From a virus: a stretch of 64,000 nucleotides of DNA. The notes beneath the pieces are model-generated. The model did no database searches. It was not told where the DNA came from and saw nothing but the letters and a program-made list of their open reading frames with translations. Position numbers and translations under genes: made by a program. The DNA is taken from IMG/VR virus record IMGVR_UViG_3300034103_001027, positions 32,001 through 96,000 of that record; one strand, written 5' to 3'. This document shows, piece after piece, positions 18,741-62,384 of the stretch. Each line of letters opens with the position of its first letter. Positions within the stretch are counted from its first letter, which is position 1.

Positions 18741-18757
18741 GAGGTACTTCCTTGTTG

Positions 18758-19678
18758 TTAGGCTGCGACGAGTTCGTAAGTAATTAGCGCATGAACTGCA
18801 GTTGCGCCAGTCAAGTCACCACCATCCTTAATGATGGTGATTGCAGTGTTTGCGTCACATGCAGCAAAGCTCGCGCCGTCAGCCAGGACTAGGCCGTTGG
18901 TGGCTGTTCCAATTCGCAGCACTACACTGCGACCCAGACCGGCAATCTTAGCGTCCATGAGCGATACGGGTGACGAGGATTGCGTTCCACGCACCAGTAT
19001 CCCAGTGATTCCTGCGGTTGTTCCGCCGACCGCAATCAATGACAGGTCGTGCAGTCTGTATTTATATCCAGGTACTGCTGGTAGCAGTGTTGCGCCAGCA
19101 TTGACATTTGCAGTGGTCGTCTCGACCCTAGCAGTCTGGACTACACCAGCAGCGGCTGCTGGTCGTGCTGTACTGAAGTCGCACGAGACGTCCGATAGCA
19201 CATTGTTGGCCACTGCTTCGAGAGCCACGATGTTTCCTGCTGTTCCAGCCACCAGCTTGCCGCTGGTGCCGCACACGAGGTTTGCGCCTTTAGATACGGT
19301 CGCACCGCCAAGTCCTTCAATGCGGCTGGCCTTGGTGATGATCAGGAATAGCTCGTCGTCTGCAACGTCGGATGTTAGGAATGGATCGACGATGCCGCAT
19401 GGGGCAGTGCCCGTGGTGCATTGAACGACATCGGTGTCCATGCGAGTTCCGGAGGTGTCAGGTGTTACCAGAGACCCTGGCTTCAGCGCACCACCGCTCG
19501 TATTCTTAACCCACTTGGTCTTAACTCGGCCACTATTCAAGACATAGAATATGTCGTTGGCTGAGTCATAACGCATTGCGACATCATCGCGCTCGTCACC
19601 AAGCAAGCCTGGTTCTTGAGCGGAGTCAGCCGCCGCTACTTTCTGCCCGAGGGCATATCTTCCGTGAAAACTAGACAT
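18758..19678 (-). CDS. Capsid decoration/cement-like two-domain protein
   Basis: Follows the capsid gene; Gly/Ala/Thr-rich; KNTSGGALKPG...GIVD motif. Confidence 0.55.
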   Translation of the reverse strand: MSSFHGRYALGQKVAAADSAQEPGLLGDERDDVAMRYDSANDIFYVLNSGRVKTKWVKNTSGGALKPGSLVTPDTSGTRMDTDVVQCTTGTAPCGIVDPFLTSDVADDELFLIITKASRIEGLGGATVSKGANLVCGTSGKLVAGTAGNIVALEAVANNVLSDVSCDFSTARPAAAAGVVQTARVETTTANVNAGATLLPAVPGYKYRLHDLSLIAVGGTTAGITGILVRGTQSSSPVSLMDAKIAGLGRSVVLRIGTATNGLVLADGASFAACDANTAITIIKDGGDLTGATAVHALITYELVAA

Positions 19679-19705
19679 TTTGTATATTGCTCCTTGATTG
19701 ACTGG

Positions 19706-20815
19706 TTATGCTGCGTAGTAAGCGCCGGTGTACTTGGGCTGATGGACATAGTTGCCCAAGAAGCCTACTAGGAATTGACTCAACTGGCTTTCTGTGGACC
19801 AATCAGTGTCAGTGAAGAACAGGTCGCTGTGTACTGAGTACAGGGCTGACGTTGATGGGTTGATCGCAAAGCCTTGACCTGCTGGGCAGTCAAAGTCGCT
19901 GGTGATCAAGGATCCACCGTAAGTCAGCGTGTCAGGGAAGCCTAGATTAGAGGCGTAATCGCTAACGCGAGTTCGCTCTCGTTCTTCCAGTCTGTCCTCG
20001 ACGGCGCTGTACAATTCTTGCGACAGCAACTGAACGACAGGAGCAGCGCCTTCGCCACCAGTGTGACGGATTGACTGAGTCATTCGTCGCATCGCTTTCA
20101 AGCAGTTAGCTGCCCATCCTGTCGATGCGCCGATGCTGGCCGAGACGTTCATGATCTTGGGACTGTTGTAGTCATAATCGCTGGAGCCAGAACCAAGTGG
20201 CCAGTCAGTAAGTAGCGCGGCGCATGGACGGCCTGATCCAATATTGTTGGACCATGTCCCGCCAATGGCTCCAAGAGCGATTGACAGTCCACCGTAGGTG
20301 GTTCCTGCGGTTGGCTTCATGATCCACTCAGTGGATGGTGAGCCAGGCGTGTCACCCTTCAAGAAGCTCTTGATCCCAGTCATGTACTGAGAGTTTGCTC
20401 CACTGTTGTCGATGTAGAACTGGCCGTTCAACTTGCGAGTCATCGCTCGAACCAAGCGGTCCATCTTCTTGCCAGCTTCGTCAACGATTGCTTGAGGCGA
20501 ATCGCTGTTGATCATTTGGAATCGACGACGCATAGTGTCGGTTGACTCTAGTTCGGCGTGCGAAATTCGCAGTTGCTCGTAAACTTGGGTTTCGTCCCAT
20601 ACGTGACGGTCGCTGCCAGTGATGGCACGAACCTTTGGCTCGCGTACTTCGATGTCCCAGACCATTTCTGGAGCCTTCATGTTCAGGATAACATTACCCT
20701 GGATTTCCATGAGCTTCAGCAAAAGGCGATTTCGGATGGTGTGATCGGTGGCTTCCTTAAAGTAGGCTGGCACCGTTACTTTGAGCGCGGCTAGCGCTTC
20801 AGCAATGGCATTCAC
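19706..20815 (-). CDS. Major capsid protein
   Basis: 369 aa after the scaffold-like gene, AGGAG RBS, size and composition typical of an MCP. Confidence 0.7.
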   Translation of the reverse strand: MNAIAEALAALKVTVPAYFKEATDHTIRNRLLLKLMEIQGNVILNMKAPEMVWDIEVREPKVRAITGSDRHVWDETQVYEQLRISHAELESTDTMRRRFQMINSDSPQAIVDEAGKKMDRLVRAMTRKLNGQFYIDNSGANSQYMTGIKSFLKGDTPGSPSTEWIMKPTAGTTYGGLSIALGAIGGTWSNNIGSGRPCAALLTDWPLGSGSSDYDYNSPKIMNVSASIGASTGWAANCLKAMRRMTQSIRHTGGEGAAPVVQLLSQELYSAVEDRLEERERTRVSDYASNLGFPDTLTYGGSLITSDFDCPAGQGFAINPSTSALYSVHSDLFFTDTDWSTESQLSQFLVGFLGNYVHQPKYTGAYYAA

Positions 20816-20880
20816 AGGTTGATACTCCTTACTGTGTTATGTTGCCTGGCCAGCCTCATGCCGACCAATGGGGTTGTCCG

Positions 20881-22122
20881 CTAGTTTCTCCACCCGCTGA
20901 CCCGCTCGGCGTTCTCTGGATTCATTCGAACCATATTTGCCAGGCGAAGCGTTGGGAGAGTTTTCGATACATGCCCAACGTCTGCCGCTGGGGTTTGTTG
21001 ATTTGGTACTGGCTGTCTGTTGTCAGCCAAGAGTCGTTTTTGCTGCGCCTGAGTTAGGACGGGTGCTGGCTCGGCGACTGCTGCTTGTGCTTGTGCTTGT
21101 TGAGTCCCTGCTGTCGCGAACTCAAGTGCGAGTTGTCGCAGTGTGATTTCTGGAGCGCCGGGAAGTTGTGTTCGCAATTGCGAAAGCTTGTTCTTGAAAG
21201 TGCTTCCCGCTTTAGTCCAGGCAACGTCGCCGGATCCGAAGAAGTCTTGTTTTGGCTCGCCGTTTGCGTCCAAGTGGAACAGGACAGACTTGTTTACTTC
21301 GTGCCACTGCTGGAGTGACTGCCTGCTCTGTCGCTCTTGCTCGGCCTGGACGTAACTCTGTCGCTCTTGCTCGACTCGGGAGTTCATCTCAGCAAACCTG
21401 GCTTCGATGATTCTCTGTGCCTTTTCCTCGGCGATTTTCTCGATAATCTCTTTGCTGTCTTCGACTACTGCCATCGGGTTCCGTAGGAGCATGTCAGCCT
21501 GCTCTCGGGATGCCCTTTCGTACTCGTTGATTGTACGGGCTGCATCGATACTCACCGCGCCGAATGAAGTAATTGGCTTGGCGTAACCACTGTCATCGCG
21601 TTCGACGTAGTTTTCCAGTAGTGGATCATACTTCTGCAGCTCACGGAACCGTCTCGCGATTTGTTGCGATTGAGTCTCTGGTCCCGTTGGTTGAGAATGT
21701 CCTGTTGTGTCCTGAGGGGCAGCCGCAGACTGAGCGGGTTGACTCTGAGAAGCTCTAAGCTGTTCTAACTCGTCCCTGAGTCGCGCTGCTTCCGACATAG
21801 CTTGCGAACCCGCCAAAGCGCGAGAGATGACGCTTTCGTAGAGTTCTGCAGGATCAGTCCCTTCATCGACAGTGATACCCTTCTGTCTGAGAAGGTCTTC
21901 AAACCTGATGGCCGCCTCTGAAGGCTGGCCCTGCCCCTGGTCTAAAACTGAAGCGGCATCCGTGCCTTCTACTGTCTCTATTCCCGGCGACAGTGCTTCA
22001 GTTGTAACCTGCGATACTTCCTCGCTAACCGTTGTAGCTGCAGTATCGCTTGTTTGAGTTGTGTCTGCTTGTGTTTTGCTGCTGGACATAAAGTCCGCAA
22101 AACGAAGTTCTTGGGATGTCAT
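20881..22122 (-). CDS. Capsid scaffolding-like protein
   Basis: Acidic, Gln-rich coiled-coil protein directly upstream of the MCP. Confidence 0.55.
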   Translation of the reverse strand: MTSQELRFADFMSSSKTQADTTQTSDTAATTVSEEVSQVTTEALSPGIETVEGTDAASVLDQGQGQPSEAAIRFEDLLRQKGITVDEGTDPAELYESVISRALAGSQAMSEAARLRDELEQLRASQSQPAQSAAAPQDTTGHSQPTGPETQSQQIARRFRELQKYDPLLENYVERDDSGYAKPITSFGAVSIDAARTINEYERASREQADMLLRNPMAVVEDSKEIIEKIAEEKAQRIIEARFAEMNSRVEQERQSYVQAEQERQSRQSLQQWHEVNKSVLFHLDANGEPKQDFFGSGDVAWTKAGSTFKNKLSQLRTQLPGAPEITLRQLALEFATAGTQQAQAQAAVAEPAPVLTQAQQKRLLADNRQPVPNQQTPAADVGHVSKTLPTLRLANMVRMNPENAERVSGWRN

Positions 22123-22294
22123 TTGTACTCTACTGGGGGATAGTGTCGCTTTGCCATCGCTCGGGTGGCTTTAATGCGATTTATTCCCCAAGTGGAGTCA
22201 GTGACTAGAAAGCTCCCGAATTGAGTATCAAAAAAATAAAAAAATCGAAAAAGGAATAATGTGTAGGCAATGGTTCTTTTTAAGAAAGGTGTTT

Positions 22295-22507
22295 ATGGAC
22301 AGTATTCCTCCAACGGAAGAGTGGCTATCAGCTAAGGAAGTGGCGGCAATCTTTGGCGTCAGCGTGTCTCGGGTTTATTTTGCGCATAGTACTGGACGCA
22401 GGAATTCGTCTGGATCGCTAGTGCGGCTGACTATGTTTCGGACTCTGTCCGGACTGGCTACGACCAGGAAGCTCGTGGATGAGTTCCTGCTGAAGCTGAA
22501 TGGTTAG
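22295..22507 (+). CDS. Excisionase-like winged HTH protein (DUF1580-like)
   Basis: LSAKEVAAIFGVSVSRVY...G...VRL...TT...EFL; GAAAGGTG RBS. Confidence 0.6.
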   Translation: MDSIPPTEEWLSAKEVAAIFGVSVSRVYFAHSTGRRNSSGSLVRLTMFRTLSGLATTRKLVDEFLLKLNG

Positions 22508-36568: not shown

Positions 36569-36961
36569 TTAGACGTTTCTCTGGTTTTCAATATATTGCT
36601 TAATGACCGAAAGCGGAGCACCACCCACCGTTGCGACGAAATAGCTATTTGTCCAAAGCGTTGGCATTCGACTCTTGAGGTGCCTGAATTCTGATCGAAG
36701 CAACCGACTAGTGCGTCCCTTGATCTGCTTGACGAGGCGATGGATTCCGTACTGTGGATCGCACTCAACAAGAAGATGCACATGGTCGGGCATTGTCTCA
36801 ATTTCAATTATGTCACTAAGACGCTCGCCGCAAACCTGACGAACAATCTCCTTGAGTCGCACATCAACCGCATCAACGATTACGTTTCGCCTGTACTTCG
36901 GGCACCAAACCACGTGGTACTTGCACGAGTAGCAGACGTTGTTGTTAGTTTTGTATTTCAT
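36569..36961 (-). CDS. tnpA: Y1 HUH transposase TnpA
   Basis: YHVVWCPKYRR, PDHVHLL, KGRTSR, LWTNSYF, YIENQ. Confidence 0.95.
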   Translation of the reverse strand: MKYKTNNNVCYSCKYHVVWCPKYRRNVIVDAVDVRLKEIVRQVCGERLSDIIEIETMPDHVHLLVECDPQYGIHRLVKQIKGRTSRLLRSEFRHLKSRMPTLWTNSYFVATVGGAPLSVIKQYIENQRNV

Positions 36962-37248
36962 GGTCTGAATTATACCGCTCGTTACTGTATAGTCAATGCC
37001 CATTTCAAAAACATTAGGAGCGTTGGCTTATATTCCCATGCCTAAAGGTAGGGGCTTTACGCCAAATTTGGTAATGGCTCGCTTGCATCGCCAATTTCCC
37101 AACCAAACTTGCCAACCAATCAACATCGCTTGCCGATGGCCCAACCAGGCTACCAAGGCGATCTGCTGCCAATTTGACTGTTTCTACCCAAGTCTCTCGT
37201 TGCGACTCTAGCTGACCTTGAATTTCTTTTTCTCGTTCGCTCATTTCA

Positions 37249-39758: not shown

Positions 39759-40145
39759 ATGGAAGTTGATCCTAAGCAAATCGCACTGATATCCAGCGCC
39801 AAGGCGTGGATTGCCAGTAGGATACGCGATGTCAGATTGGCTCGTGGTATGACACAGAAAGAACTCAGTAATCGCATGGCGATAACCTATACCAGAGTTT
39901 CTGACCTGGAAAACAACATCTCGGACTACAAAATCAGCTCACTCCTTAGGGCCGCATGGGGGCTTGGAGTCTCGCTTGAGGACTTGATGAGCGGCTGCCC
40001 TGGATGGAAGTCCAAGGCAGCCATCGAAAAAACAATGATTATTGTTGAACACCAGAGAGCCCATCACGTTCTAGTCTCTTCTGGTGTTTCGGCTCGAGAG
40101 GCTGACCGCATTTGCGCCAGACTCCTCGATGAATCCCGGTCATAA
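39759..40145 (+). CDS. XRE-family HTH transcriptional regulator
   Basis: IRDVRLARGMTQKELS...VSDLEN...LGVSLEDL. Confidence 0.85.
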   Translation: MEVDPKQIALISSAKAWIASRIRDVRLARGMTQKELSNRMAITYTRVSDLENNISDYKISSLLRAAWGLGVSLEDLMSGCPGWKSKAAIEKTMIIVEHQRAHHVLVSSGVSAREADRICARLLDESRS

Positions 40146-47510: not shown

Positions 47511-47981
47511 CTACCGTCGTGATACACTGACCTTAAGTGACTCCATTATCCGATTGGCAATGTCGTCTGTGTCAATTCCGACACGCTCAGCGAGGTTGTC
47601 GTAGTCGATGTGTATGCTCTCGGCCAGTTCGGCATAGTCCAGGTCGATGTTGCTTGCGATATCCTCTTTATCCAACTCAAGACACTCAACCAACTCCCTG
47701 TAGTCGACTTCAAGGTATCTAGCTAGCTCGCTATATTCAAAACATAGGTTATCAGCCAGCTCTCTGTAATCGATATGCCTCGACCAGTTTATGTCCTCAG
47801 TGGCTCTCGTAACTGCATCATCTATAGCTACCGAATCTAGACCCTTGCTGACTTCACGGCGCATGACTTCTTCAATATCGATTCTATTGATTCGAGATTG
47901 AATCTCTGATGCAATCAGTTGTTTGACGCACGCATCGATGCGATTCGTGATGAATGATTTAAATCGTGTGAACATGTTCAT
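47511..47981 (-). CDS. Hypothetical protein with about seven 11-aa acidic repeats
   Basis: IDYRELADNL / FEYSELARYL / VDYRELVECL / LDYAELAESI / IDYDNLAERV. Confidence 0.65.
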   Translation of the reverse strand: MNMFTRFKSFITNRIDACVKQLIASEIQSRINRIDIEEVMRREVSKGLDSVAIDDAVTRATEDINWSRHIDYRELADNLCFEYSELARYLEVDYRELVECLELDKEDIASNIDLDYAELAESIHIDYDNLAERVGIDTDDIANRIMESLKVSVSRR

Positions 47982-48517
47982 TTGTCTTCTCCTTTTGAAA
48001 ATTGTTTACTATCCCGCAGGTACTTCAGAAGGGCGACCGCCTTCTTGTACTCAGCCTGAATCGCCAGATCCTCTAGTGCCGCATGCCCGTCAAGGGCCTT
48101 GCACAGGTCGGACATGGAGATCAGTACGTCTCGAATGCTTGTCACCATATCGATGGTAACGCCACCAATAGTGACGCCACCCTCTACAGTGAGCATCCCA
48201 TCTATGACGGTGATCGTGTGCTTCACTTCTCCTCCAGCGTGTACGTGACTGCTACGTCGTCCATGGTTTCGCTAATTACCGCACCCTCGGACCTCAGCAC
48301 TGCGAGTACGCTCTCAAATGCCTTCTTGGTGCAGTCAGATATAGCATCAACTGGAACAATTCGAACTGGTCGGCCACTCATGAGATCCTCTACGTGTCTA
48401 GCGATGTCACCTGCAGGCCACCCGAACGTCATGAACATCGCCATCTCTTGCCTGACGATTTCACTTGACACCTCATTACTTAGCTTCATATTGATTCTCC
48501 TGTCTCTTAAGAGACGG

Positions 48518-49477
48518 CTAAACATTAAAGAACTTTCGCAATCTCTCGTGACCGTATTGACCTTTCGTCTTCTCAATTATCTGCTTGACCGTGTACTCCT
48601 TTCTCTCATGCCCTGCGGACTCGACGAACATTTGGCAGCCCATCGAGCAGGCCCCGGTAACTGACCTGTACAACTGAACGCACTTCTCGAACGGCAGCTT
48701 GTCGGTTAGCTTCAGGCCCTTGAACTCACTGGTGTCCCTCGGTGATAACTTGTAGGCCAGGGACTCACGCGCTTTCTCGATGGTCTCTCCGTGAGAATAG
48801 TTCTCCCCGTCTGTTACGAGATACGAAACCTTGCCGTCGATCTGGCGTAGTTTGCGAATACCAAACTTCTCGCTTATGACTTCCGAGAAGACACCATCAA
48901 CCTTGATGTACTTGCCGTTCTGCCAAGACAGGAGTCGAACATCGCTTCCTATATGGCGACTGTCGCCCTGCAGGTGTAGGTCTCCACCAACCGTAGGATT
49001 AAATCCTTCCGGCAGGCTGGTAACACTCCGCAGATATAGGTTTCCACCAACCGTAGGATTGAATCCTTCCGGCAGGCTGATAACCCTCGACAGGTATAGG
49101 TCTCCACCAACCGTAGGATTAAATCCTTCCGGCAGGCTGGTAACGCTGTGCAGGTAAAGGCTTCTACAAACCGTAGGATTAAATCCTTCCGGCAGGCTGG
49201 TAACACTCCGCAGGTCGAGGTATCCACCAACCGTAGGATTGAATCCTTCCGGCAGGCTGGTAACACTCCGCAGGTCGAGGTCTCCACCAACCGTAGGATT
49301 GAATCCTTCCGGCAGGCTGGTAACACTCGACAGGTATAGGTCTCCACCAACCGTAGGATTAAATCCTTCCGGCAGGCTGGTAACACTCCGCAGGTCGAGG
49401 TCTCCACCAATGGGCTGCCTCCCGTCGAACTGCTCGTCAGTAATATTGAATTTCTTGCAAAACTCTTTTCGATTCAT
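48518..49477 (-). CDS. Leucine-rich-repeat-like protein (20-aa repeats)
   Basis: GGDLxLxSVTSLPEGFNPTV repeated about 7 times. Confidence 0.8.
   Translation of the reverse strand: MNRKEFCKKFNITDEQFDGRQPIGGDLDLRSVTSLPEGFNPTVGGDLYLSSVTSLPEGFNPTVGGDLDLRSVTSLPEGFNPTVGGYLDLRSVTSLPEGFNPTVCRSLYLHSVTSLPEGFNPTVGGDLYLSRVISLPEGFNPTVGGNLYLRSVTSLPEGFNPTVGGDLHLQGDSRHIGSDVRLLSWQNGKYIKVDGVFSEVISEKFGIRKLRQIDGKVSYLVTDGENYSHGETIEKARESLAYKLSPRDTSEFKGLKLTDKLPFEKCVQLYRSVTGACSMGCQMFVESAGHERKEYTVKQIIEKTKGQYGHERLRKFFNV
48971..49410 (-). repeat. 60-bp coding tandem repeat, about 7.3 units
   Basis: Units align in register on consecutive 60-nt lines. Confidence 0.95.
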
Positions 49478-50047
49478 ATTGATTCTCCTGCCTCTTAAGA
49501 GACGGCTAGTGTCCTAATTTCCTCGAACTCGCACTCGCTGACCCCATTGATCCTTAACCACTGCACATGCTCGTACTTCTTGTAGAGTTCATCTCGAATC
49601 TCGTCGGCACTTGCGTGGCTACTTAGGATCACTTGGTCGGCGATACGGTAAAACAAGCCGGACGCATTAACCTTGCGCCCTGTGAATTCGCATTGATAAA
49701 TCATGTGTTCTCCTTTTTATAATGCGACATGCCGTACATGGCAAGTCTGGGTCACCAGTCATACTGTGGAAGTTCTTCGTGCAGCGGACCATCCGCATCG
49801 AGGACCAACCATTTGCAATCATTGTCCTTGGCTATACGAAGAAGCCTCGCAACATTCGTGACACCAAAATTCTCAAGAGCACTAATCGTCTCCTCGAAAT
49901 CCGGTGGTGTGTATATTCGCCATCCATATTCATACGGGTAGCATATTATGTACTTATTAACCCTACTGCACTTATCTTGGAGCGCTGCGCTTTCAAGTAC
50001 ATTGATATGTGCAGTGCTGAAGACAATCTCTTTGTTGATTTCGTAGT

Positions 50048-50704
50048 TCATATTCGCTTCCCTTCTTCTGTAAATTCGTATTCGTTGCAAACGATATTCT
50101 CAGCAACATTCTCGTCACCCATCAAGTAGTCGTACTCCCTCTCAAGGCTCTTGTACAACCAGTGCGCAAGGTCTCGGAAGAGATCAAGCAAGTCGTCTTC
50201 GACGGTTGGCTCAGTGATATCCTTGCCGTCCCGCCCTTCTATGTAGTCAACGCTCATTGTGTACGCATGAACACCCCTGCCACCCTGACTCACTCGGGCC
50301 GTCAGTTGATACATGTACGGCTTCTGTATCGACTGCAGTCCTTCGCCTATACGCAGTAACTCCTTGTCATTGCAGTACGCGAGGAGCTTCTTCTTCCAGC
50401 CAGGCGAGTACTCATAATCCCCGGCCCAGGATGCTCCATCACCCTGCGAGCAGAAGCCGCTAAAGTAAATCACTGGCTTGTACACAGGTATCTTAGCGCC
50501 GTCTTTTCCGAGACGGTAAGTGCAGCTTGTTCTTTCGCTCAGGGTGATACCGAGTATCTTCGTGATCGCAATGAAGTCATCGAAGATGCAATCCCACCAC
50601 TCGTCGTATGGGTAATCCCCCCCTCGATACCAGTCGCGAGCATTGGCTTTTGCTGAATCGCTAAGCTCCTCGTAGGTGTAGACCTTCGTCTCAATCGTTC
50701 GCAT
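50048..50704 (-). CDS. Hypothetical phage protein
   Basis: YTYEELSDSAK..AR, IYFSGFCSQGDGAS, YEFTEEG. Confidence 0.65.
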   Translation of the reverse strand: MRTIETKVYTYEELSDSAKANARDWYRGGDYPYDEWWDCIFDDFIAITKILGITLSERTSCTYRLGKDGAKIPVYKPVIYFSGFCSQGDGASWAGDYEYSPGWKKKLLAYCNDKELLRIGEGLQSIQKPYMYQLTARVSQGGRGVHAYTMSVDYIEGRDGKDITEPTVEDDLLDLFRDLAHWLYKSLEREYDYLMGDENVAENIVCNEYEFTEEGKRI

Positions 50705-53700
50705 GGCTCTCCTCCGTTCTCTGTATTGGCTCGACCTTAGTGACACGCAGTCCACCGCAGATTGTCTTGGCAGTCACCTGATGTGAAGGAGCCCTGCCTT
50801 TCGAAAATGGATTGGACTTCCACTGAACCTTGATGCAATCTTCATCGTGCGATATCCGCACAGTCGTCCCAAGGCATGCGCCGGGGTACTCATTGCCACC
50901 GCTGACAATGCCGTTCTCTATGGCGCGAGCAATCCTTAGTAACTGCTCGGCACTCAACTTAATACCGTTCATTACATCCTCCTAATCGAACCAAAAGTAA
51001 AGCCTAATTGCAGACACAATGAACTCATCTGCTTGATTGGCGAACCTACTGAAGTCAGCCAGAGTTTCTTTACTGTACTCCCCGACATACTCCAGTCCCT
51101 CGATAGTCACCCTGTAGTCGTCTCTTAGGTGACTGATGGCGTAGCCATGGGCCGTAAACACTGGGTTGCTCTCCATAAATTTAAGCATCTCCGAGGCAGT
51201 TGGCGCACTGTTCTGGTGATCCTTTCCTTCAATGAACTTCTCATCGAACAACTTCTTCAATGTCTCTAGGGTCATACCCCTGAAACTCTCGCAGTCGCCG
51301 ACCTCATCTCGGCCAAAGATAATCTGATTCCGTCGCTTGTAATCTTTATTTAACATCAGTATTCTCCTTAAATATCTAATCCACCACGCTGAAATAAAAC
51401 CACCTTCTTGGGATGCTCGATCTCGTGCGAGCTTTTCATTCTTCTGCCCCTGCACTTTCAATGAACTTCTCCCTTGTCAACACCTGAATCACTACAGACA
51501 TATCCGAAGCCAGCCCCCTGGGTGATATCGGGCCAGTTGGCACCTCCTTCAGAGTGCAGTTCGGCCCGTATGGTAGGATGGTCAGTTGACCAGCCCAGCT
51601 TGACCCAAAATCATGTGCTTCCAGTAGAACCCAGCCATCAGGCCGGTACTCATTCAGTTGCACCCCAAGACGCCGTGACAACTCTGGCGGCTCAATGTCT
51701 TGCTTGCCGCAGTATGTTGCGATAAACGTCGAACGGTCCACGTATTCCATCATTCTTCTCCTGTTTCTTGTGGTACATTCGCCTTACATGGCAAGTTGTT
51801 GATACAAAAATCATACGCATCAGAAAATCTGTCGTCGCTTCGCACCATGGAATCAATCTTATTGACCCACAGAACAGTGACCGGATGTTCCCTCAGCGCA
51901 TCGCCATAGACACCATGGCCCTTTAGGTCCGATAGCGCCCTGGAGAATCCATTAGCTACCGCCATAAGATTGCAGGCGTCTTGGACCGATAGGGCGTCAT
52001 CGCATAGTTCAGGTATTGGTTTCATTGACATGAGTCCTTTCTAAAGTTGACTTCATTTCGAGGATACAGAACATGTATTCATCATGGGCAACTGGCCGCC
52101 AGTTCTCCACGAGATCCTTCAAGACCATTGGCCCTGTGCAGAATCTCCCTTCATGGAAGTAGATGATTTTCTTTGTTTTCTCGTGGACATACGAAGGACA
52201 GAATCCCCAGTATTTCCAGCACCCAGTAATTGTGTAGCCATACCTCGCCATGTCTGGGATCTTGCGGAACCCGTCAATAGCATCCGCCTTGTAGTACCTG
52301 CGACGGTCAGCCATCACATCCATCCTTTCTCTTTGAGGTGCTGCTTAATATCCCTATAGGTGCAGTTGCTTAGTCCTGGCCAGAAGACGCTAAACATAGT
52401 TCCGTACTCAAGCTCTGCCTTGCACGCACCTCCTCGCCACCACCCGCAGTAGCCGCAACTACTGAACTTAATTCCTGCATACCGTGCGTACTGCACCATA
52501 ATGCAGCCGCACGTATCGCCTGCCAAATTCTCACCGAATCTAACCTGTCGGTCGTCCGGCTGCTGCTGAATAAACTCGATCATGTCTTCCCTGGTTACTA
52601 CTTTCATCACTGCTCTCCCTTCGTCTCTTTAGAGACGGCATTAGCTTTCTCTTGAACGTACGACATGGCGTCACACCGAATCGTCGGAACCCCACGAATG
52701 ATTGCCATTGCTCCTCCACCGAACTCATCAGTTCGCATTTTGCTACATGTGTATGCCCACGAGCAGAAGAATGGGTCATCGATCTCAAGCTCCTCAATTA
52801 ACTGTCGAGCAATCGCGTCGACTGTAATCGGACAGAACGACTCGTCTCCGATGAACAGCACTCCATCACCCTTGATCTCAATCTCCACTCCATACTCAAG
52901 ATAAGACTCGTATTCGTCCTCACTTTCTCCGTATTCTAGACATACAGATTTAGCCGCCTCGATCTTCGCTCTCTCAATGATCTCCTGAACGCGAGGCATC
53001 TTGTCTTTTGGTATCTCCATGAATGAACTGCTTTGTGAATAGTTATTGGCCATTTCATCTCTCCGTTTGTAAGGGTTAATTCCGCCACGAACCATCTCTA
53101 AAAAGACGGTTATATGGCAAGTCACCAGCGTGCCCACTCAGGCAACGCTTCGTAAGTTTCCTGCGCCAACTCTTCATATCGCATCGCCCATGGAATGTCG
53201 CCGCCAGTCCTCTTGGTTCTCGCCTCAAGGGACAGCGAAGCGTATTGGCGTAGTTGTTTAACTGCATCCATGGCTTCCTTTCCTTTGCCAGGGAACATGA
53301 CCCTAGCTTCAGTCATGGGCCGATCCCACATAGACCGATAGAACCCACGCAAGTCCTCCTCGTCCATCCCGTCCAAGTTCGGGCTGCCAACCCAATTCCT
53401 GGACTTCTTCCTCGGTGTCGCCTTAAGTTCCTTAAGGTTCTCCAGTGCCCACTTTCGCATCGCAACAGCTTCGCTTCCTGCGCTATTGTGTCCGCCCCCA
53501 TTATTCCAGGCGTCGTATAGTTCATCAGGAAGTTCCAAGCCGAACCGGCAGTAAACGTCATCCGGCACTGTCTCTGGTAATCCATCTGATCCATACGACC
53601 CAGATAGCGTCGTTTGGTAGTCACCCAGCTTCGCGCTGCCCATCATGAAGTGCCCGAATTGCGACATCTTCACGAAGCGAACTACACCCTTGAGCTTTCT

Positions 53701-54680
53701 GTACTTTTCGCTCTCGCCTTGCATGAGAATCAAGAATTCTCCGTGAGCGAACTGCTCTCCGCTGCTAGTATATCCTCGCTTTGTTGTTGTTACGAACATT
53801 AGTTGCCCCTCCAGTCGAGGTCTTGTGTTATGCAGATAGAACGGCGTCGCGTTAAGGCGAAACCAGCGGTCAGGCAGTCGTTCACATCAGCGGAAGTGTA
53901 CTCGTTCCAGGTGGTAATGTATTCTTCGCACAGTTCCAGGAACTTCTTTTCTGCGGACTCATAGTCGTCGAATAAGTAAGCCTCTTCTAGTAAATTGCGG
54001 TCGATGATAACTACTAGTGTCTTATTCATGATTAACCTTTCTGCCGTCTCGAAAAAGACGGCCCGTGATGATAGTCTATACTTCCCCTACGATCTCAAGA
54101 TCAGGGAAGCTTGGGATCTCTAGGGACCGAATAAATTCCTCAATTGTCGTACTTGGATCGCGTGCTTCAAGTTGATCCAATGGGATCAAGATACGACCTG
54201 ATTGAGTGGCGTTGAACATTGCAATACCATTTGGCGTGTAGTATTCAACGTGCCCATCAAGCTCGTACCTGGTGTCCCGTTGAATCAAGATGGAGGCTCC
54301 AATTTCAATACAATACGCAACAGTGTCGTTGAAATCACTTTGAGTGCATTCGTAGAAGTACCCGAAACCATCATCACCTAAGTCGCCTTCAAGGCACGGC
54401 GACAGCAAGCACTCGATCTTCTCTAATTGCTCCTGCGTTACCTTGCCGCCAATGTAAACCGATCCACTAAACCTGTCAGCCATGTTACACCTCCTCCCTG
54501 TCGTATGTATCACAAACCCCAAAAGCTTCTGCCGCATCGTCTGGATTCTGCTTAAGGTACCTAACCCTCTGCTGTAATGCGTCAATTAGCACGCCAACCG
54601 GAACATCCCTCGGTTCTTCGCAGTCGTGATTGACTGTAAACGCCACGTCAAACATGGTGTTGTATCTCATCGCTCTCTCC

Positions 54681-55649
54681 TTAGTACTTGGATTTCTCTT
54701 GCCAAACAAACTTAACGCCTTCCGGTAGGTCGGCTGTCTGAAACTCTGCCACAATTGGAGCCATTGCATCGAACTGCTCCTTCGTTATCCTCCTATCGGT
54801 GCTAGTCCAATTGACCGTCACCTCATTAGTGTGGTTGTAGTAAATGTAGTTGATGCCGCTTCCGAACTTGTCAAGCATGAACAACTCAATATCACGGTCG
54901 ATACGAAGCTTCTTGGACTTGTTATCAAAGTCGCAGAGAATCTCAAGCCGCTTCTGCGCCTTAAAGCGAGCTTTCTTTTCGGCGTCTCTTGCGGCGATAG
55001 ATTCAGGTGAGTAGTACCCAGTTCTCCTTCTCTCAGCCACCAATTCCCTCATCTCTTTCGAGACGGGCTTGTAGTGCTTTCTTGTGGCTTTAGACTCGAA
55101 CTTCTTGCCGGTCCACGCCTCAAGCTGGGCAATAGCGGCATCTGCCTCTTGCTTCCATCTCTCGACAATACCCGTGTCCTCGAGGAGTATTTGAATCTCC
55201 TCATCGGATCGGCACTCAATGAATGCAGGAAGCTCAGCATCGGTCAGCCTGAGCGACTCCTTGAAGATGCGCAGGCACTCCTCCTTGCTCTTTGCCCAGC
55301 TTCCACTGCCACCGTGATACTCGACCCAGGGGGCACCGAGATACCCGGCCAGCCAGTACCACGCATTGCCTCCATGCATTGGGACGCCTTCCCAATCACA
55401 CAGGTGAAGGTCAACGAACGGCTTGAGTTCTGGCCTGACCGAGAGTATCTCCTCGTGGCAACAGCCGCCACCAGCATCGACCCATCGACCTCGACCGTCC
55501 TTCTCTTTGATGTTTGCTGTTACAGAGAAGTCCTCATGGCCATTCTTACAGTCATCGTCCAGGGTTATTCGAATGTCGAACAACCGGCCACCCTTCCTCG
55601 CCACGATACTGTGCCGCAGGGTGTTAGTCGTTTCAGTTGTTTCAGTCAT
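54681..55649 (-). CDS. Hypothetical phage protein
   Basis: 322 aa; DDCKNGHEDFS, GGCCHEEI, LHLCD..GVPMH. Confidence 0.65.
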   Translation of the reverse strand: MTETTETTNTLRHSIVARKGGRLFDIRITLDDDCKNGHEDFSVTANIKEKDGRGRWVDAGGGCCHEEILSVRPELKPFVDLHLCDWEGVPMHGGNAWYWLAGYLGAPWVEYHGGSGSWAKSKEECLRIFKESLRLTDAELPAFIECRSDEEIQILLEDTGIVERWKQEADAAIAQLEAWTGKKFESKATRKHYKPVSKEMRELVAERRRTGYYSPESIAARDAEKKARFKAQKRLEILCDFDNKSKKLRIDRDIELFMLDKFGSGINYIYYNHTNEVTVNWTSTDRRITKEQFDAMAPIVAEFQTADLPEGVKFVWQEKSKY

Positions 55650-56147
55650 TTCATCTCTCCTTCGTCTCTTTAGAGACGGTTAGTGCGTCGTGACATTGCA
55701 TTCGTACTTGCCTATCAAGTGCGATAATGCTTGGTTGGCATTGGGCCAGCTACACCAGCCCATGCCGTTCTTGTAAACAGAGCCGGACATGAAGATGTGA
55801 TACACATCTGGTCCGACTCGAACTGTATAGATCAAGGTCATGCCATTGCCCCTTTCGTCTCTTTAGAGACGGTTAGTACATTTGGTCAGCCAATTGACAT
55901 CGCAGTTCCTGAGCCAGGTCCAGGCAGTTTGAGCTTCTGTACACGCCGACATTCGCCCAGTACTGATGCAAGTACGCACCGCCACTAAAAGAGTTATCGC
56001 CGGTCTGGTAATCCCAAGAGCCGTCCTTGTCAGCTCCAACGGTTAGCTGTATCCCTGGTTTGTCGTCACCCTCGAAGGCAAGATAGTCATCCTCGATGTA
56101 CTTCTTGATATGGCGACACAGCTCGTAGAGTTCTTTGATTGTTGGTT

Positions 56148-56309
56148 TCATTTGCTTTTCCTTAGTGAGTAGACTGATTCTCCAGGTGGCCAGATGCATG
56201 GCACGAGATACAGCGTGACGCCGCACTTCGGGCACGTAATAGTCTCTGGTTCGGGCCAGCCAGGGACATTGATCATTTCTTTGCAGGCACCGCATGATTG
56301 ACTAGTCAT
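56148..56309 (-). CDS. 53-aa Zn-ribbon protein (not in the ORF track)
   Basis: MTSQSCGACKE...CPKCG; ATGA overlap with the next gene. Confidence 0.55.
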   Translation of the reverse strand: MTSQSCGACKEMINVPGWPEPETITCPKCGVTLYLVPCIWPPGESVYSLRKSK

Positions 56310-57344
56310 GCGACGCCTCTGTCTCTCTTGCGACGGTACGCTTACGCCTTATCCGGGTCACTAGGAACGTACATTCCCAGCTCTCCTCGTCACCGCTAAT
56401 AAGCGCCGCTTCCCACATACAAGGGCGACACCATAGCCTCGTTCGTTCGTCAGCCTCCCTGATAGCGGCCTGGCACATATTCTCAAGCCAACCCTCGCTA
56501 CGGTCGTACAGGTCAGACGGAAGCTTCACTTTGTATTTATCCTTAACAGTGCTCATGCTGTTCTCCATGAAGTTGTTGGCGCTTCTTCGATGGCGTAACG
56601 TGTGCCATCGTCAATCAGAACTAGAGCCTCTCCAGGGAAGAGATCAGGCTTGCCGATGCAGATTGAGCCATCGGCGATCTTGGAATTTACAAGGGACATA
56701 ATGTCCCCGAGGGTCGCGTCGTCCTCGTAGTCGCTGTAGTACACACAGGCTTTCGAGAAGGACACGAAGTGATTAGTGCCGTTGGTCATCAATCATCTCC
56801 TCATTAAGGGTTATATGGCAAGTCCTATCCGGAATAATAGCGACAGAGACTTGAGGTCTGTCGCCATTCATGTTGATACCTACGACCCATCGGTGTGACT
56901 GGCACCCCGAGAGGAGGAGGGTAAGTAGCAGTAATCCTTTACGCATGATAATCCTTTCTATTTGATCCATGAAAACTCATAGGGCCATTGCGACGGACTG
57001 CATGAATCGTGAATGCGTTGGTACGACCGAATAAGATCCCTATGACTCTCTGGCAGGCCATATATGGTAACCAGTCGATCCCAGGTGTGATTCTCGAAAT
57101 CCACGTTGTACTCATCGTCTCCGATGAGGCATCCCGCCGCACACTTGAGGGTCTTACCGTCTCCTTCGAGATGATAGCGACATATAGCACCGGCTACACA
57201 TCGCTCGCCCTGAGCGAGAAGATGCGCCTCGATCTGTGCCTTAACCTCTTCCCGTGTTGCAAGGTGCAATGTCTTTAGCGTGATCATGATTAACCTTTCT
57301 TGTTGATGATTGCCGTCTCTAAAAAGACGGCCTCTTGCTTATAC

Positions 57345-57384
57345 AAAAACTTGCCATACAACGCAAGAGTGTTATATGGCAAGT
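57345..57384 (-). terminator. Terminator-like hairpin built from two inverted ACTTGCCATA motifs
   Basis: ACTTGCCATATAAC-8 nt-GTTGTATGGCAAGT-TTTT. Confidence 0.6.
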
Positions 57385-59604
57385 CGATTCCAAAAATTAC
57401 AGCAGGAACTCAGTCGTAGTCCCGCATACGATCCACTTGCCAACCTTGTAGTCCAGCGTGCCGCATGGATGGCGATGCGGGACAAAGACCACAAGGTCTA
57501 GGTACTGCAAGGCCAGGAACATCGGGCTATCCTTGGGCATGTCGACTGGAATTGATTCATGCGCTGGCCGCCAAGCGCCCTTCCACACTAGGCTTCGGTA
57601 TGTATCAATAATCTCTTGCCTGGACAATCTAGCCCCGGTCTTTTCAAGGACGACTCTAATCGCCTCTCTAACCCATTTAGCGCGAGACCGACCGGCAGCC
57701 GCTCGATCTACTGGCTCTATGACGCAATTTACGTGCAGGTTTCTTTTGCTGGACCCAGCCCAATACCCGCATCCATCCCTGGACGCAGTGAAAAGCTCTC
57801 CATGCAGCCAGAACTTGTCGCCTGGCGCGAGCAATCCAAACCGATAAACTGGCTTTATTTTTTTCGTTCTCATGTTTCCCTTTCACTCGTCTTTTTAGAG
57901 ACGGTTGATTGTTGTTGCGCATTTTCCCTAAAGCAAATCCTGGATCTCGTCAGCTAGGCGATACGTGTACTTCAGTTCCTCGTCAGATGCCCACTGCATG
58001 ATATATGCAGCGGTAACCCCTTTCATACTAATGCCACCACCGTGGGCCATCAAAAACTCGTCCACAATAGCCCTCATGGCTTCATTGAGATGCACCCACT
58101 GTCCGCCCACTGGAAGGTTCAGTGCTTCCGTCTCCTTGGCGCTAAACAGATCGCAGGAGGCGATGTCGCCCCAGCCGTCTGCATTAGACCAAAACAACAT
58201 TACGTTGTTTTCCATGCTTCGAATCACATAGATCATGGTTTCCCCTTCGTCTCTAAAAAGACGGTTAAGTGTTATTACGGATTGTCTCTAGGTTAAGACA
58301 TGGATTTCGAGCGATTGTGGACAGAGCTGCCGTCCGGGTAGATATTGAGCCCAACGTAAAACGCCGGGAGCACTCGCCGATCCTCTCCTGCGGCCTCTGC
58401 GGCCAATCCCCTGGCAATGTCATCCAGGATACTGTACTGGCAGCCATCTTTGCAGATATTGGCGACAGTGACATTCCTTGGGTCAAAGCCTTCAGCCCGC
58501 AGCAGACCAACGACACTTCGCACGGGGGTTCTACTTAGCACCTCAGGCAGGCGGTACACGAAGCTCGTGCTGTTGACTGTAATCTCAACTCTCATTTACT
58601 TCCCCTTCGTCTCTAAAAAGATGACTCTTAGCCCAGACGGACCTTCCGCCCGGCTCTCTTGAACACGCCGCCAACGGGTCGCTGCCGACCCAATTCGGGG
58701 CAGGCCGTAATGACCCAGCGCCCGTTTGGTTGCAACACCACGCGCCCAGGCCCAGCCGGAACCGGCCTTTTCAGGCTAGCATGTTCCATTGCCACTAGGC
58801 CCAACGCCTTCCTGGGTGGCATCCCATAGTGGGCACACATTGCCCGTATGGATACCCAGTGCCCATAGTATGGACAATTCATAGTAACTTTCCTTATACC
58901 AGGAGTCCCAAAACGAAACAAGCCAACAGCCCCGATAAGGCAATTGGCTAGCGTCGTCTCGAAAAAGACGGACCAAGGTCGGCGCGCACCCCGATGATAG
59001 TCCCCTTATGATAGTCCGCATCTTGCCGATTCACCCGTCCCCAAGGCAGCCGCTGACCATCGGGCCAACCGCTGCTGTGTAGGACAGGTGAATCGTTTGA
59101 AACAACCGTCTCAAAAAAGACGGGTCAATCCCCAATCGGAAGTCTGGTAGTGCCGAATTCGGCGAATCCAACAAACGTATAGTTCGCCAAGGCTTTCACG
59201 CTATCGCTCCACTTCCGGCCATCCACGCCCAGGTCGTTCAGAATGTCCAAGAACACTTCGGCAGTCGCGCCGTAGTGACGATGCGTCTCAGCGTATGCCT
59301 CCCAGTAGAGGTTGCCAATCGCATCAAAGCCGACTAGCACTTCAACTGGGCGGATATAATCCGGGTGTTCACACAGATACTTAGCAGCCATTTCGATTCC
59401 CCTTTGTTTCTAACCGTCTCAAAAAAGACGGCTTGCACCAATTACGGATTTTCTCCGTGGTGCTTTTGGTCCAATTGAGACAATGGAAACAAGTGAAACT
59501 TGCTTCCCCTACGCAACAAACGTAGGCTAACGAATCCCGTAGGATACATTAGCCTACGCCGCCCCCCTAGTTTGAGGGGCGGAGAAGGTTATATGGCAAG
59601 TCGA

Positions 59605-60375
59605 TTAGGCGACTTCAGCGGTAGCCGCTGCAAAAGCTTCTCGAGCCATCTGATCTACTTCAGGGGCAAGCATTCCATCCAGCCAAACTGCCTTGTCGGC
59701 AAGGGCTTGGCTTACCACTAGATCGAACACTCTACCGCTAAACTCAGGGCCGCCAGCCTTCAGCCAGTCAGCGATTAGCAGCAGCTTGTCATTGGTATCC
59801 GCTGGCAGGACCGCTGGAATAGGCGACTCAACCGTCTCTTGAGAGACGGTTGGATTGCCAGTCGCACTCTCGGGCTGCGCTTCCTCAGCCTTCTTCTTAG
59901 ACTCAATCGCCCCTACAGCCTTAAGCTGCGCATTCATCTGCTGGTTGAGCAGATTGCCAACGCTCCGCAAGCGGTTCCCGATGCACTTGCAATCCAATTC
60001 CCACTTGCGATACGCTTCGGCGTCTGCTGGAGACGGGCGTACTTGCATGCGCATTTCCCGGACAACTAAGTCCCAATGGGCGTAGCTGGTCCATGCAAAG
60101 CCGCACTTGGCGCTAAACACCCCTTGGCTGACGTCGCGCTTCTTCTTCTTGGCAAGAGACTTCAGCGCTTCAACAATGGTCTCATTGCAAGACCAGAACG
60201 CCTTGATACATTGCAGCTTGTCGGCGCTCGCCGTATCAACGGTCGAGTCCGCAAACACTTCCCGCATGAATGGCTCCATCATCACGACGCGCTCACTGTC
60301 AGTCAGTCCATTCTCAATCTCTTGTGCCAGCATATCCCTAACGGCACTCTCGAACTTGGTCAGATTCTTGCTCAT
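59605..60375 (-). CDS. Hypothetical protein, first gene of the leftward early array
   Basis: 256 aa, AGGAG RBS preceded by the palindrome. Confidence 0.7.
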   Translation of the reverse strand: MSKNLTKFESAVRDMLAQEIENGLTDSERVVMMEPFMREVFADSTVDTASADKLQCIKAFWSCNETIVEALKSLAKKKKRDVSQGVFSAKCGFAWTSYAHWDLVVREMRMQVRPSPADAEAYRKWELDCKCIGNRLRSVGNLLNQQMNAQLKAVGAIESKKKAEEAQPESATGNPTVSQETVESPIPAVLPADTNDKLLLIADWLKAGGPEFSGRVFDLVVSQALADKAVWLDGMLAPEVDQMAREAFAAATAEVA

Positions 60376-60478
60376 TGCATTCTCCTTCGTCTCTTAAGAG
60401 ACGACTAAAAACGGTTCGGCAGTATAGCGAAGGTGCTTGTCTGCTCTCGATTCACTCGACTTTGCAAGAGAATCGAAA

Positions 60479-60511
60479 GCAGCCCTTGCACCAATAAGAT
60501 ACAAGGGCTGC
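60479..60511 (-). terminator. Terminator-like hairpin
   Basis: GCAGCCCTTGTATC/GGTGCAAGGGCTGC with T runs on both strands. Confidence 0.65.
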
Positions 60512-60524
60512 CATTTTTAGTTTC

Positions 60525-61115
60525 TAGTTATGGTGAGAGTCGATGCCCCGCAGCAATCCAGACCCTTTTGGGGTACTGGTTGTAAAGCGCCCATATTGCC
60601 GCTTTACACTTCCCGTAGATAGCCCCTGCGATACTTTCCGCCTATTTAATCGCGCCAAATTGTAGGCTATTGCTCACGCTAAAATCGGTTTCTAGTCTCC
60701 GATAGTGAATACCCGCTTTCCTAGTGTTTTGCCAGAACACCAGGCGTAAGAGACCCCCTTGATAGGTGGTGCATTGAATATCCGGCCTTTTATTGGCGAC
60801 TACACGCCGCCTGACTACACGCAATAAACGCTAGAATCCGCATCATATCGCTATGAATGCGTTAGATTGTCGCGCTATCTACGTCGTAACATTTTATTGT
60901 TACAGCCCCCCGCTTTTCATGGCCTTCCTCAAGTCAGGGTTTCGCAGGGCGGTCAATACTAGCCATCGGTCTTGACAAGGGTAGTATTCCTGGAGCACAC
61001 GGTTGGGTTTCCCCCAACTCAGTGACTGGTCCTAGTTTATCGAAAACTCGACTAGGACCCCGCTGATAATCTGCTATCGCAGCTTTCTGTCGCGATTACC
61101 GATGCGACAACCTAA
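60525..61115 (-). ncRNA. Candidate large structured non-coding RNA (about 600 nt)
   Basis: No credible ORF; more than 10 consecutive hairpins; G-U pairs favour the minus strand; ends at a terminator-like hairpin. Confidence 0.55.
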
Positions 61116-62352
61116 CATCATATGGGACAATCGTTCCTTGCATGCTTGTGTTGCTGTGATGCTATTTCCAATTGCCTAGCATTGTGGCAACTAAACATCG
61201 TATGGAACAAGTGAAACAATGGTTTCGGTTGTCGTCTTAGAAAAGACGGCTTGTGGCTTGTATAAGAATTAAGGCGAAAAATGCTTTTCAACGTGCTAAT
61301 GGGGCGAATTTTCACATTAACTTTCAGTTTTGAGCGTCGTAAGTGCTTATTTGACAAGGGGTTACGAAAATCAGCCAGGTGATAAAGGGGTGGGACGGAC
61401 CATTTGTCTTGTAGATATATATTGGTACAGCCCCAAAAATTTTTCACGATTTTCAAACTCCAATTCCCCTCTTTTAGTGGAGCATGCGAATCAAACGAAT
61501 CAGGATTGGGCTAGAATCGACGCTGATCGAGCCTTGACTCTTTACACCTAATCACCCTCAAGTCGCTTCCTGACGCGAGTTAGGGGCCTTCTTGAGCGTT
61601 TGATGCGACCTGAGGGTCTTGAAGGTGCGAAGTAGGTGGAAGCACCAATTGCCCCTTTCAACGCTTTACGGGGCAATCTGATGCGTTTTAGGGCATCTAT
61701 AGCCCCACGAGCGTCTTGTGGGGTGTTAGGTACGGTGAGGAAGACGGTGATTCGGTGGTGAAGGTGCGGAATGGGTGGAAGTACCAATTGCCCCTAGCGC
61801 ATTTGATACTGATCCCTGGTGTCCTTCTTGCGTTCCCTAGGGTTCCTTCCTGCCTTTCTTCACGGGATGCCTCTTCCCTTCTGCTCCTATTGCTTCGCTT
61901 ACCCCTTGAGAGGCTATTGCTTGGCTATTGCCTCTTTATGGGGCTTGTTGAAGCAACTTGGAGCTATTAGTTATATGTTGCACCTTATTTCAAATGTGTA
62001 CCATTATTTTGAAAGTCAATGAGGGAATCATATACTGTTGCGCGTTTATGTCTCTATGTAGTTTCTAAGCAGGCCGCCCAGGGAGGAGGCAACCAAGAAG
62101 GGGCCTGGTTCACGCTGCTTTATGTCTCAAATGACCTATTTTAGATCTCAACTGACCACAAAAGAGACGGAAAGCAGCCATTCAAACCCTTAATGGCTCG
62201 CTGGACGCCCTTATGTACCCCTAGAACGGCTTGAGACCCGATTAGTGCATGGAATCTTGCCATTAAGGTATCTGAAATAGACCCTAAATACACCAACAAC
62301 TGGGTTGCCGAGTAGATTTTATGGCGTTTTTCGCCAGAAAGAGCATCGAGGG

Positions 62353-62384
62353 ACTTGCCATATACCGGAAGGTCGCTAAGATTG
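62353..62384 (+). promoter_or_regulatory. Promoter-like ACTTGCCATATA motif: TTGCCA-16-TAAGAT
   Basis: Same motif as the minus-strand copies at 30289, 31779, 49735 and others; sits upstream of the rightward genes. Confidence 0.6.

Follow-up and report, generated by a model that had tools for sequence, protein, structure and literature searches.

The 64,000 nucleotides of DNA analysed here (the window) are bases 32001-96000 of the 106,833-bp IMG/VR record IMGVR_UViG_3300034103_001027, which has an estimated completeness of 77% and represents an uncultured phage of at least 107 kb; within a block of 13 kb they carry an array of 20 copies of the palindrome CGTCT-N6-AGACG. Judged from sequence comparisons, the phage is only distantly related to catalogued phages: a megablast search of it against the GenBank phages returned no match, and its large terminase matched phrog_2 weakly (2e-09). 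Scans against Pfam and PHROGs identified a serine integrase, helicases and an IS200/IS605 pair among its products, and the window gave no match in scans for Rfam families and tRNAs. Nearly all genes of the window lie on the minus strand, including every gene in the palindrome block, and a short plus-strand island begins at window position 62321. The start of this island points to a divergent control region at approximately 61.5-62.3 kb and to leftward transcription of the palindrome block.

Fourteen perfect copies of the palindrome are present, all within 50500-61248, where 0.06 would be expected by chance, and none of 100 shuffled sequences reached that number. With up to one mismatch allowed, 20 copies were found in the window compared to 1.77 expected; 19 of these lie within 48501-61248, including five one-mismatch copies (within 48501-58623), and the single stray at 24115 corresponds to the chance level for the remaining window. 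An extra copy with two mismatches, at 49489-49504, lies in a 41-nt context that is 93% identical to that of the copy at 48501 (48480-48520 vs 49468-49508). No perfect copy occurs in the rest of the 106,833-bp record, and the 94 kb outside the block hold 25 matches with up to two mismatches, against approximately 46 expected for the whole 107-kb record, so that looser matches there do not exceed background. An earlier description of the window, made from its letters alone and referred to here as the original prediction, had reported 14 perfect and six degenerate copies against a chance expectation of 0.06; its counts, coordinates and chance estimate were correct, as was its account of a spacer that is fixed at 6 bp, AT-rich and variable, and the record-wide motif scan that it had proposed as a check found no perfect copy outside the block. 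Its list of copies inside open reading frames (ORFs) was right for 50500, 55050 and 59833 and missed a fourth at 57158.

Anatomy and placement of the sites

Read on the coding (minus) strand, the sites follow the consensus aaC-CGTCT-Y-WWWW-R-AGACG-(G/A), or AAC-CGTCTY-WWWW-RAGACG-GTT when written as an extended dyad. Spacer length is invariant across the 20 copies, position 6 is a pyrimidine and position 11 a purine in every copy, and the central four nucleotides, which are free in sequence, have a G+C content of approximately 11% compared to approximately 50% for the genome. The flanks often lengthen the dyad to AACCGTCT...AGACGGTT, or about 22 bp (in duplex form, AACCGTCTCTTAAGAGACGGTT), with stems of up to 10 bp. 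Conservation is far higher in the 10 arm bases than in the flanks, information content has dropped to background at 3 nt beyond the site, and the sites are not embedded in a long repeat. Conservation of the word so far in excess of that of its flanks indicates that the word itself is under selection and is not merely inherited or structural. The centres of the two half-sites are 11 bp apart, which is one helical turn, and the variable centres occur in both orientations (nine T-rich, seven A-rich); the site at 57888 is the exact inverse of those at 58248 and 57314.

Sixteen of the sites are intergenic or at gene junctions, and four are located inside ORFs (59833, 57158, 55050 and 50500), two of these being perfect. 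A site is present in 12 of the 14 intergenic gaps that measure at least 17 nt between 48.2 and 60.4 kb, and genes whose stop and start codons overlap have none. Ten sites end 11-15 nt 5' of a start codon with the Shine-Dalgarno (SD) sequence abutting the 3' arm, giving the pattern stop-C-palindrome-AAGGAG-ATG, and several start 1 nt past the preceding stop codon. The other ten, and hence half of the array, are not adjacent to a ribosome-binding site or associated with a start: they comprise the leader site at 61233, the sites at 59107 and 58955 in a 242-nt gap, three sites positioned 23-39 nt from a start codon, and the four intragenic ones. The sites are given below by window coordinates, in descending order and without strand.

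61233..61248: perfect, minus-strand centre TTTCTA; in an ORF-poor leader, no start codon after it
60388..60403: perfect; ends 12 nt 5' of the ATG of the first early gene (256 aa); TATACT -10-like box 17 nt upstream
59833..59848: perfect; within the 256-aa ORF; dyad lengthened to 22 bp (CAACCGTCTC..GAGACGGTTG)
59415..59430: perfect; 23 nt 5' of the ATG of an 88-aa gene; same centre as its neighbour 59107
59107..59122: perfect; immediately past the stop codon of the 88-aa gene, no adjoining gene start
58955..58970: perfect; second site in the 242-nt gap 5' of a basic 84-aa ORF; TATCAT box 23 nt upstream
58608..58623: one mismatch; 12 nt 5' of the ATG of a 100-aa gene
58248..58263: perfect; 11 nt 5' of the ATG of a 102-aa gene
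57888..57903: perfect, the 58248 sequence inverted; ends 14 nt 5' of the ATG of a 158-aa gene
57314..57329: perfect; between a strong terminator-like hairpin (57348-57385) just upstream and the ATG of a 109-aa gene, 26 nt away
57158..57173: one mismatch; within the 109-aa ORF
55856..55871: perfect; TAA-C-site-SD, ends 14 nt 5' of the ATG of a 53-aa gene; 24 nt identical to the 55663 site
55663..55678: perfect; TAA-C-site-AAGGAG, ends 13 nt 5' of the ATG of a 322-aa gene
55050..55065: one mismatch; within the 322-aa ORF, no insertion relative to homologs
54045..54060: perfect; 15 nt 5' of the ATG of a 76-aa gene; TATCAT box 7 nt upstream
53093..53108: one mismatch; abuts a GACTTGCCATATAAC repeat, 39 nt 5' of the ATG of a 148-aa gene
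52622..52637: perfect; in the last codons of the 148-aa ORF, ends 14 nt 5' of the next ATG
50500..50515: perfect; within a 218-aa ORF (phrog_5162), encoding RLGKDG in a loop of variable length
49489..49504: two mismatches; 11 nt 5' of the ATG of a 319-aa gene
48501..48516: one mismatch; TAG-C-site-GGAG, ends 11 nt 5' of the ATG of an 88-aa gene; last of the array

No conserved promoter motif was found to accompany the palindrome, with no column conserved beyond 3 nt upstream, and sigma-70-like promoter matches are not enriched in the region (16 vs 14.9 expected). A -10-like box with five of six matches lies no more than 30 nt upstream of 3 of 16 sites, compared with 4% of control positions (p = 0.024), and four sites have a -10-like box exactly 17 nt upstream. 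Because a subset of the sites follows a -10-like box, the array probably mixes promoter-proximal and purely intercistronic sites, as in stoperator systems (PMC9283540).

Proposed function and rival explanations

The explanation that we prefer, with a probability of roughly 45%, is that the palindromes constitute an operator or roadblock array for a putative dimeric protein acting on double-stranded DNA. The arms carry seven substitutions in all, each of them a one-sided transition without compensation; the outcome on the sense strand is G-U in three cases and an A-C or C-A mismatch in four. The stability of the hairpins that the two strands could form does not differ (-7.1 kcal/mol sense vs -6.5 kcal/mol antisense; Wilcoxon p = 0.35). 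Taken together, the invariant arms, fixed spacing, A/T-rich centre, presence of both orientations, uncompensated changes and equal stability of the strands argue for sequence-specific, symmetric recognition of double-stranded DNA and not for a generic RNA hairpin. The array itself, its confinement, its symmetry and its placement are observed directly; that a protein binds, that its target is DNA and not RNA, and that its effect is repressive are steps that we infer.

In the mechanism proposed, one twofold-symmetric, sequence-specific protein would bind all of the sites on double-stranded DNA, and the 13-kb early block would be transcribed leftward from the divergent control region at approximately 62 kb. 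With sites at almost every gene junction of the block, the protein would thus control the whole of it at once: a site after a promoter would act as an operator, and one between a stop codon and the next ribosome-binding site as a roadblock to elongation. The conserved word probably doubles as microhomology for the swapping of single ORFan genes. If one protein does read all 20 sites, a single switch controls a 13-kb block of approximately 30 uncharacterised early genes, and finding this binder would help to show when and why these host-takeover ORFans are expressed; gene gain and loss in such ORFan blocks may also be explained by these sites.

The original prediction had offered two readings, the first of which was stoperator-like silencing of the early region by an XRE protein or another regulator. 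Operator- or stoperator-like sites for a dimeric DNA-binding protein indeed provide the best fit to the anatomy (arms, spacing, orientations and strand-neutral folding), but the assignment of the XRE protein as the binder is unsupported. The two proteins that bear on the identity of the binder are as follows.

39759..40145, plus strand: XRE-type helix-turn-helix (HTH) regulator, the candidate binder of the original prediction; identified by family scan as a real HTH regulator
58628..58882, minus strand: 84-aa ORFan with an isoelectric point of 11.2 and two sites upstream of it in the array's longest gap

No site with up to two mismatches occurs within 8 kb of the XRE gene or in the divergent region at 61.5-62.3 kb, and it is the lack of a site near its gene that makes the XRE regulator a poor candidate. 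The 256-aa product of the first early gene is a strict ORFan, and the 250-aa divergent protein has no usable look-alike. The basic 84-aa ORFan, which has no match in Pfam, PHROGs, NCBIfam or the PDB, is a weak lead to a candidate site-binding protein: its nearest named clusters in the ESM Atlas are HTH_59, HTH_17 and Phage_Cox at 0.88, a value that the tool grades as giving leads only, and its single-sequence AlphaFold2 model, which at a pLDDT of 45 is too poor for a fold search, predicts a helix-turn-helix followed by a beta-hairpin. Three weak HTH matches were considered and rejected, all of them falling in an acidic protein of 156 aa with DYxELA repeats (47511-47981) that is not a regulator; the one weak match to HTH_ParB (E = 0.11) lies in an acidic repeat protein and is spurious.

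A number of results weigh against an operator array. The only clear regulator, the XRE protein, has no site near its own gene, and among the 38 ORFs of the early region no DNA-binding family was detected in Pfam even at E ≤ 1 and no solid match in PHROGs. Comparative support for the exact word was obtained neither from the IMG/VR pattern scan, which returned only single, chance-level matches, nor from that of the JGI metagenomes, where the same was true among the matches listed. The remaining points concern the transcript: folding of the surrounding mRNA predicts a hairpin at each copy, the spacing of 11-15 nt to the start codon at ten sites and the abutment of a stop codon on several would be natural for an element acting at the level of mRNA, and position 6/11 is C-G or U-G in 17 of 20 copies on the sense strand compared to 12 of 20 copies when the antisense strand is read, which hints weakly at RNA pairing.

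An mRNA-level element is the main rival, kept alive by the packing of stop codon, site and SD sequence and by those 17 of 20 pairable positions on the sense strand. According to this explanation, a sense-strand hairpin with a 6-7 bp stem and a 4-nt loop, placed between the stop codon and the SD sequence, would be read by a sequence-specific RNA-binding protein or endoribonuclease, and this factor would process the polycistronic early transcript, stabilise its pieces, or switch the translation of many early genes jointly. The start-adjacent sites amount to 10 of the 16 intergenic ones, several sites begin directly after a stop codon, the hairpin is part of the minimum-energy fold of every copy (-5 to -10 kcal/mol), and the 17 pairable positions include eight U-G pairs. 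However, hairpin stability is without strand preference, as noted above, and the arm changes are uncompensated, with four of the seven leaving an A-C or C-A mismatch in the sense strand. The loops contain only A and U, vary freely in sequence, are found in both orientations and in no case are stable tetraloops of the GNRA or UUCG types, whereas the proteins known to bind hairpins usually recognise the loop. Stems range from 5 to 10 bp (mostly 6-7 bp) without bulges, too short for RNase III with its duplex of approximately 20 bp; a sense-strand U-tract follows only one or two of the palindromes, which hence are not intrinsic terminators; and half of the sites are not adjacent to an SD sequence, four of them being intragenic. 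We regard an mRNA-level element as unlikely, although as an explanation to be kept in view.

A different property of the array concerns the relationship between neighbouring sites. On six occasions, neighbouring intergenic sites have an identical 6-bp centre (permutation p = 0.011), same-centre neighbours including 59415 and 59107, 55856 and 55663, and 49489 and 48501. Outside the site, the members of a pair stay identical for between a few and 16 nt, into the SD sequence and start codon, the 41-nt context shared by the 48501 and 49489 copies being one example. Tandem gene duplication was rejected as the cause of this identity; there are no paralogs among the early ORFs bracketed by same-centre sites. 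Identical centres around unrelated genes suggest that, in the manner of PeSLs, the sites may serve as hot spots of recombination as well, and by analogy with recombination at T4-type PeSLs (PMC2839356) the neighbour identity is read as a secondary consequence of the conserved word. The second reading of the original prediction went further and took the palindromes to be the recombination junctions of a one-gene cassette array, possibly served by the tandem serine recombinase. In the form considered here, exchange at these junctions would insert, delete or swap single ORFan genes, either by homologous recombination as at T4-type PeSLs or in a manner resembling tyrosine recombinases, with inverted arms around a 6-bp overlap. 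One signal for such junctions was found, namely the shared centres of neighbours that bracket non-paralogous genes; the link to the serine recombinase is unsupported, since the crossover sites of serine recombinases have half-sites of approximately 12 bp, for which the 5-6-5 geometry is too small.

Consistent with cassette junctions, a second initiation region, AGAAAGGTTAATCATGA, is also found 5' of three unrelated genes, and recombination at PeSLs has been documented experimentally (PMC2839356). Flank similarity between neighbouring sites, on the other hand, is only marginal (p = 0.067), and no tyrosine recombinase turned up in the Pfam and PHROGs scans, which covered part of the ORFs of the record. 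The intragenic sites of the 322-aa and 218-aa genes lie in regions that are also present in homologs, indicating that they are not mobile insertions, and recombination alone would leave the exact keeping of the word unexplained. Cassette junctions as the primary role of the palindromes are considered improbable. About as improbable is a version in which the 22-bp dyads, with 8-bp arms and a 6-bp asymmetric centre, would be the crossover sites of an integron-like cassette exchange in the phage early region: same-centre sites would recombine, ORFan genes with their own ribosome-binding module would leave as circles and re-insert, and an unrecognised recombinase among the ORFans would catalyse the exchange. 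Integron attC and other site-specific cassette sites have a cognate recombinase encoded in the vicinity, conserved core triplets and extrahelical bases; these features were not found, the sites being short perfect dyads without bulges and the proteins scanned including no tyrosine recombinase.

Least credible of all is that the palindromes are REP/MITE/PATE-type mobile elements spread by the Y1 transposase encoded at approximately 36.6-37.0 kb, or sites linked to restriction-modification: the window does encode a Y1_Tnp (IS200-like) protein together with a TnpB-like transposase, and CGTCTC, the BsmBI/Esp3I word, stands head-to-head with GAGACG in nine or ten copies, but no CGTCT-type hairpin (up to two mismatches) lies at or near the IS200/IS605 element (35.3-37.1 kb), although REP and PATE hairpins would match the subterminal hairpins of the cognate IS or RAYT, the copies are without common flanks or target duplications, the intragenic ones are not insertions, and CGTCTC is not avoided elsewhere (29 plus-strand copies outside the block).

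Other features of the phage and palindrome arrays in other phages

The early block is headed by the ORF-poor leader of approximately 1.6 kb (60400-62040) in which the first site lies. Within it are the two 86% identical copies of a 42-nt direct repeat (61615-61656 and 61754-61795) and, at approximately 60475-60513, a terminator-like hairpin; the leader matches no Rfam family. A second repeat family, GACTTGCCATATAAC, read along the local genes, is present on the minus strand at 53104-53127, 56805-56828, 57366-57389 and 59583-59606 and on the plus strand at 62353-62371. Of the four minus-strand copies, those at 53104, 57366 and 59583 begin right past a stop codon. The strong terminator-like hairpin at 57348-57385 has a copy of this repeat as its 5' arm, and another copy abuts the palindrome at 53093; the repeat may be a promoter or terminator module. 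The translation-initiation region AGAAAGGTTAATCATGA mentioned above occurs on the minus strand at 54026-54042, 57284-57300 and 56943-56959, and its presence before three unrelated genes suggests that start modules are shared or exchanged.

Among the genes of the block, that of 319 aa contains seven tandem 60-nt repeats (48910-49470) that encode 20-residue units, GGDLDLRSVTSLPEGFNPTV. The Cys/His-rich early protein of 322 aa (54681-55649) belongs to no Pfam family but has hundreds of homologs across very different phages, including Bacteroides LoVEphage, crAss-like, Microbacterium and Pseudomonas phages; its invariant residues include C34, H82 and H273, and a C63-C64-H65 run is near-invariant. 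The 218-aa protein (50048-50704), assigned to phrog_5162, has more than 300 homologs, some of which are labelled by some sources as "antitoxin of toxin-antitoxin stability system." Beyond the left end of the array, the acidic protein of 156 aa encoded at 47511-47981 is composed of approximately seven units of 10-11 residues, (I/V)DYxELAxxL, and has few relatives; such a very acidic repeat protein could be a DNA mimic.

The IS200/IS605-type element inside the phage occupies 35429-37003. Its TnpB-like transposase is phrog_506 (2e-84), and a Y1_Tnp match of 3.8e-44 among the scanned ORFs probably belongs to the adjacent ORF at 36569-37003. Outside the window, an ORF of 4724 aa (L135:140-14314, contig 8140-22314) carries an ART-PolyVal ADP-ribosyltransferase domain at residues 1245-1387 and represents a giant polyvalent protein of the type thought to be injected along with the DNA. 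A phage RNA polymerase that uses hairpin promoters was also considered and rejected, the 4724-aa protein being polyvalent and no RNA-polymerase family appearing among its Pfam and PHROGs matches.

Close relatives of the phage exist: a protein 98% identical to the 218-aa protein (P0121) is encoded on contigs of up to 91 kb, those of its cluster measuring 91, 70, 18 and 10 kb, and locus searches in viral and genome collections did not return relatives of this closeness. One triple match in the pattern scans (L101) was rejected as a further array of the same word, being a protein repeat. The distant phages that share the 322-aa early protein each have a uniform palindrome of their own. Three complete genomes of 68-73 kb (G003-G005, the records of L136-L138) contain 10, 5 and 21 copies, respectively, of CTGAC-N5-GTCAG, with reversed-pattern controls of 0, and in one of them a copy lies just upstream of the gene for the 322-aa homolog. 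This palindrome often adjoins a TGCGGC-hairpin-GCGTCCCCA module. In another complete genome, of 62 kb (G001, the record of L004), 20 copies of TGTAGA-S-TCTACA are distributed over the whole length, and the central base switches in blocks along the genome. A third lineage (G002, the record of L003) has a GGGCCCCCGGGCCC hairpin within repeats of approximately 80 bp, with 14 copies in 20 kb. These arrays provide a precedent for the preferred explanation; they are genome-wide and not confined to a block, and hence show a recurring habit and not homology.

Comparison with known systems

Palindromic operators that are repeated a dozen or more times in intergenic positions and through which a single repressor exerts global control are exemplified by the conserved inverted repeats (CIRs) of Streptomyces phage phiC31 and the KorB OB operators of plasmid RK2. 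Neither a homolog of the phiC31 repressor nor one of ParB/KorB was detected here.

The SAS and ESAS of Cluster K mycobacteriophages number 11-19 copies per genome and are situated immediately 5' of the translation starts of some of the non-structural genes (PMC3203893); their function is untested (PMC12699233). SAS, an asymmetric word of 13 bp, includes the SD sequence, while ESAS has imperfect arms of 17 bp separated by a spacer of 4-13 bp (PMC3203893). The palindromes resemble ESAS as inverted repeats just 5' of the ribosome-binding region, but their arms of 5-8 bp are exact, their spacing is fixed, and 10 of the 20 sites are not associated with a start. The PeSLs of T4-type phages combine a sigma-70 promoter with a terminator stem-loop of variable stem sequence, and recombination between them excises or swaps single genes in plastic early regions (PMC2839356, PMC4122927). 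In PeSLs and in the present array alike, repeated intergenic stem-loop motifs flank ORFan genes, and the neighbour-identity signal described above fits such recombination; in contrast to PeSLs, the palindromes have no conserved promoter or U-tract, and their stem is invariant.

The stoperators of Cluster A mycobacteriophages, bound by L5 gp71 or the TipsytheTRex repressor, are asymmetric words of 13 bp that are bound by a monomer, are oriented according to the direction of transcription and are spread genome-wide (PMC9283540). The immunity repressor combines an HTH with a second DNA-binding domain, and this one phage protein has been proposed to silence many genes by blocking both initiation and elongation (PMC9283540). 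As with the palindromes, many copies of one short word are dispersed, mostly in short intergenic spaces; stoperators, with more than 20 copies, also lie at promoters, and a few of the palindromes follow -10-like boxes. The palindromes differ in being dyad-symmetric, in occurring in both orientations on one transcription strand, in their confinement to 13 kb of 107 kb, and in that no homologous repressor was found with them. Dispersed operator arrays of phages are already known in the form of stoperators (PMC9283540), and the palindrome array of this early block, as a putative operator array, is a variant of such dispersed arrays.

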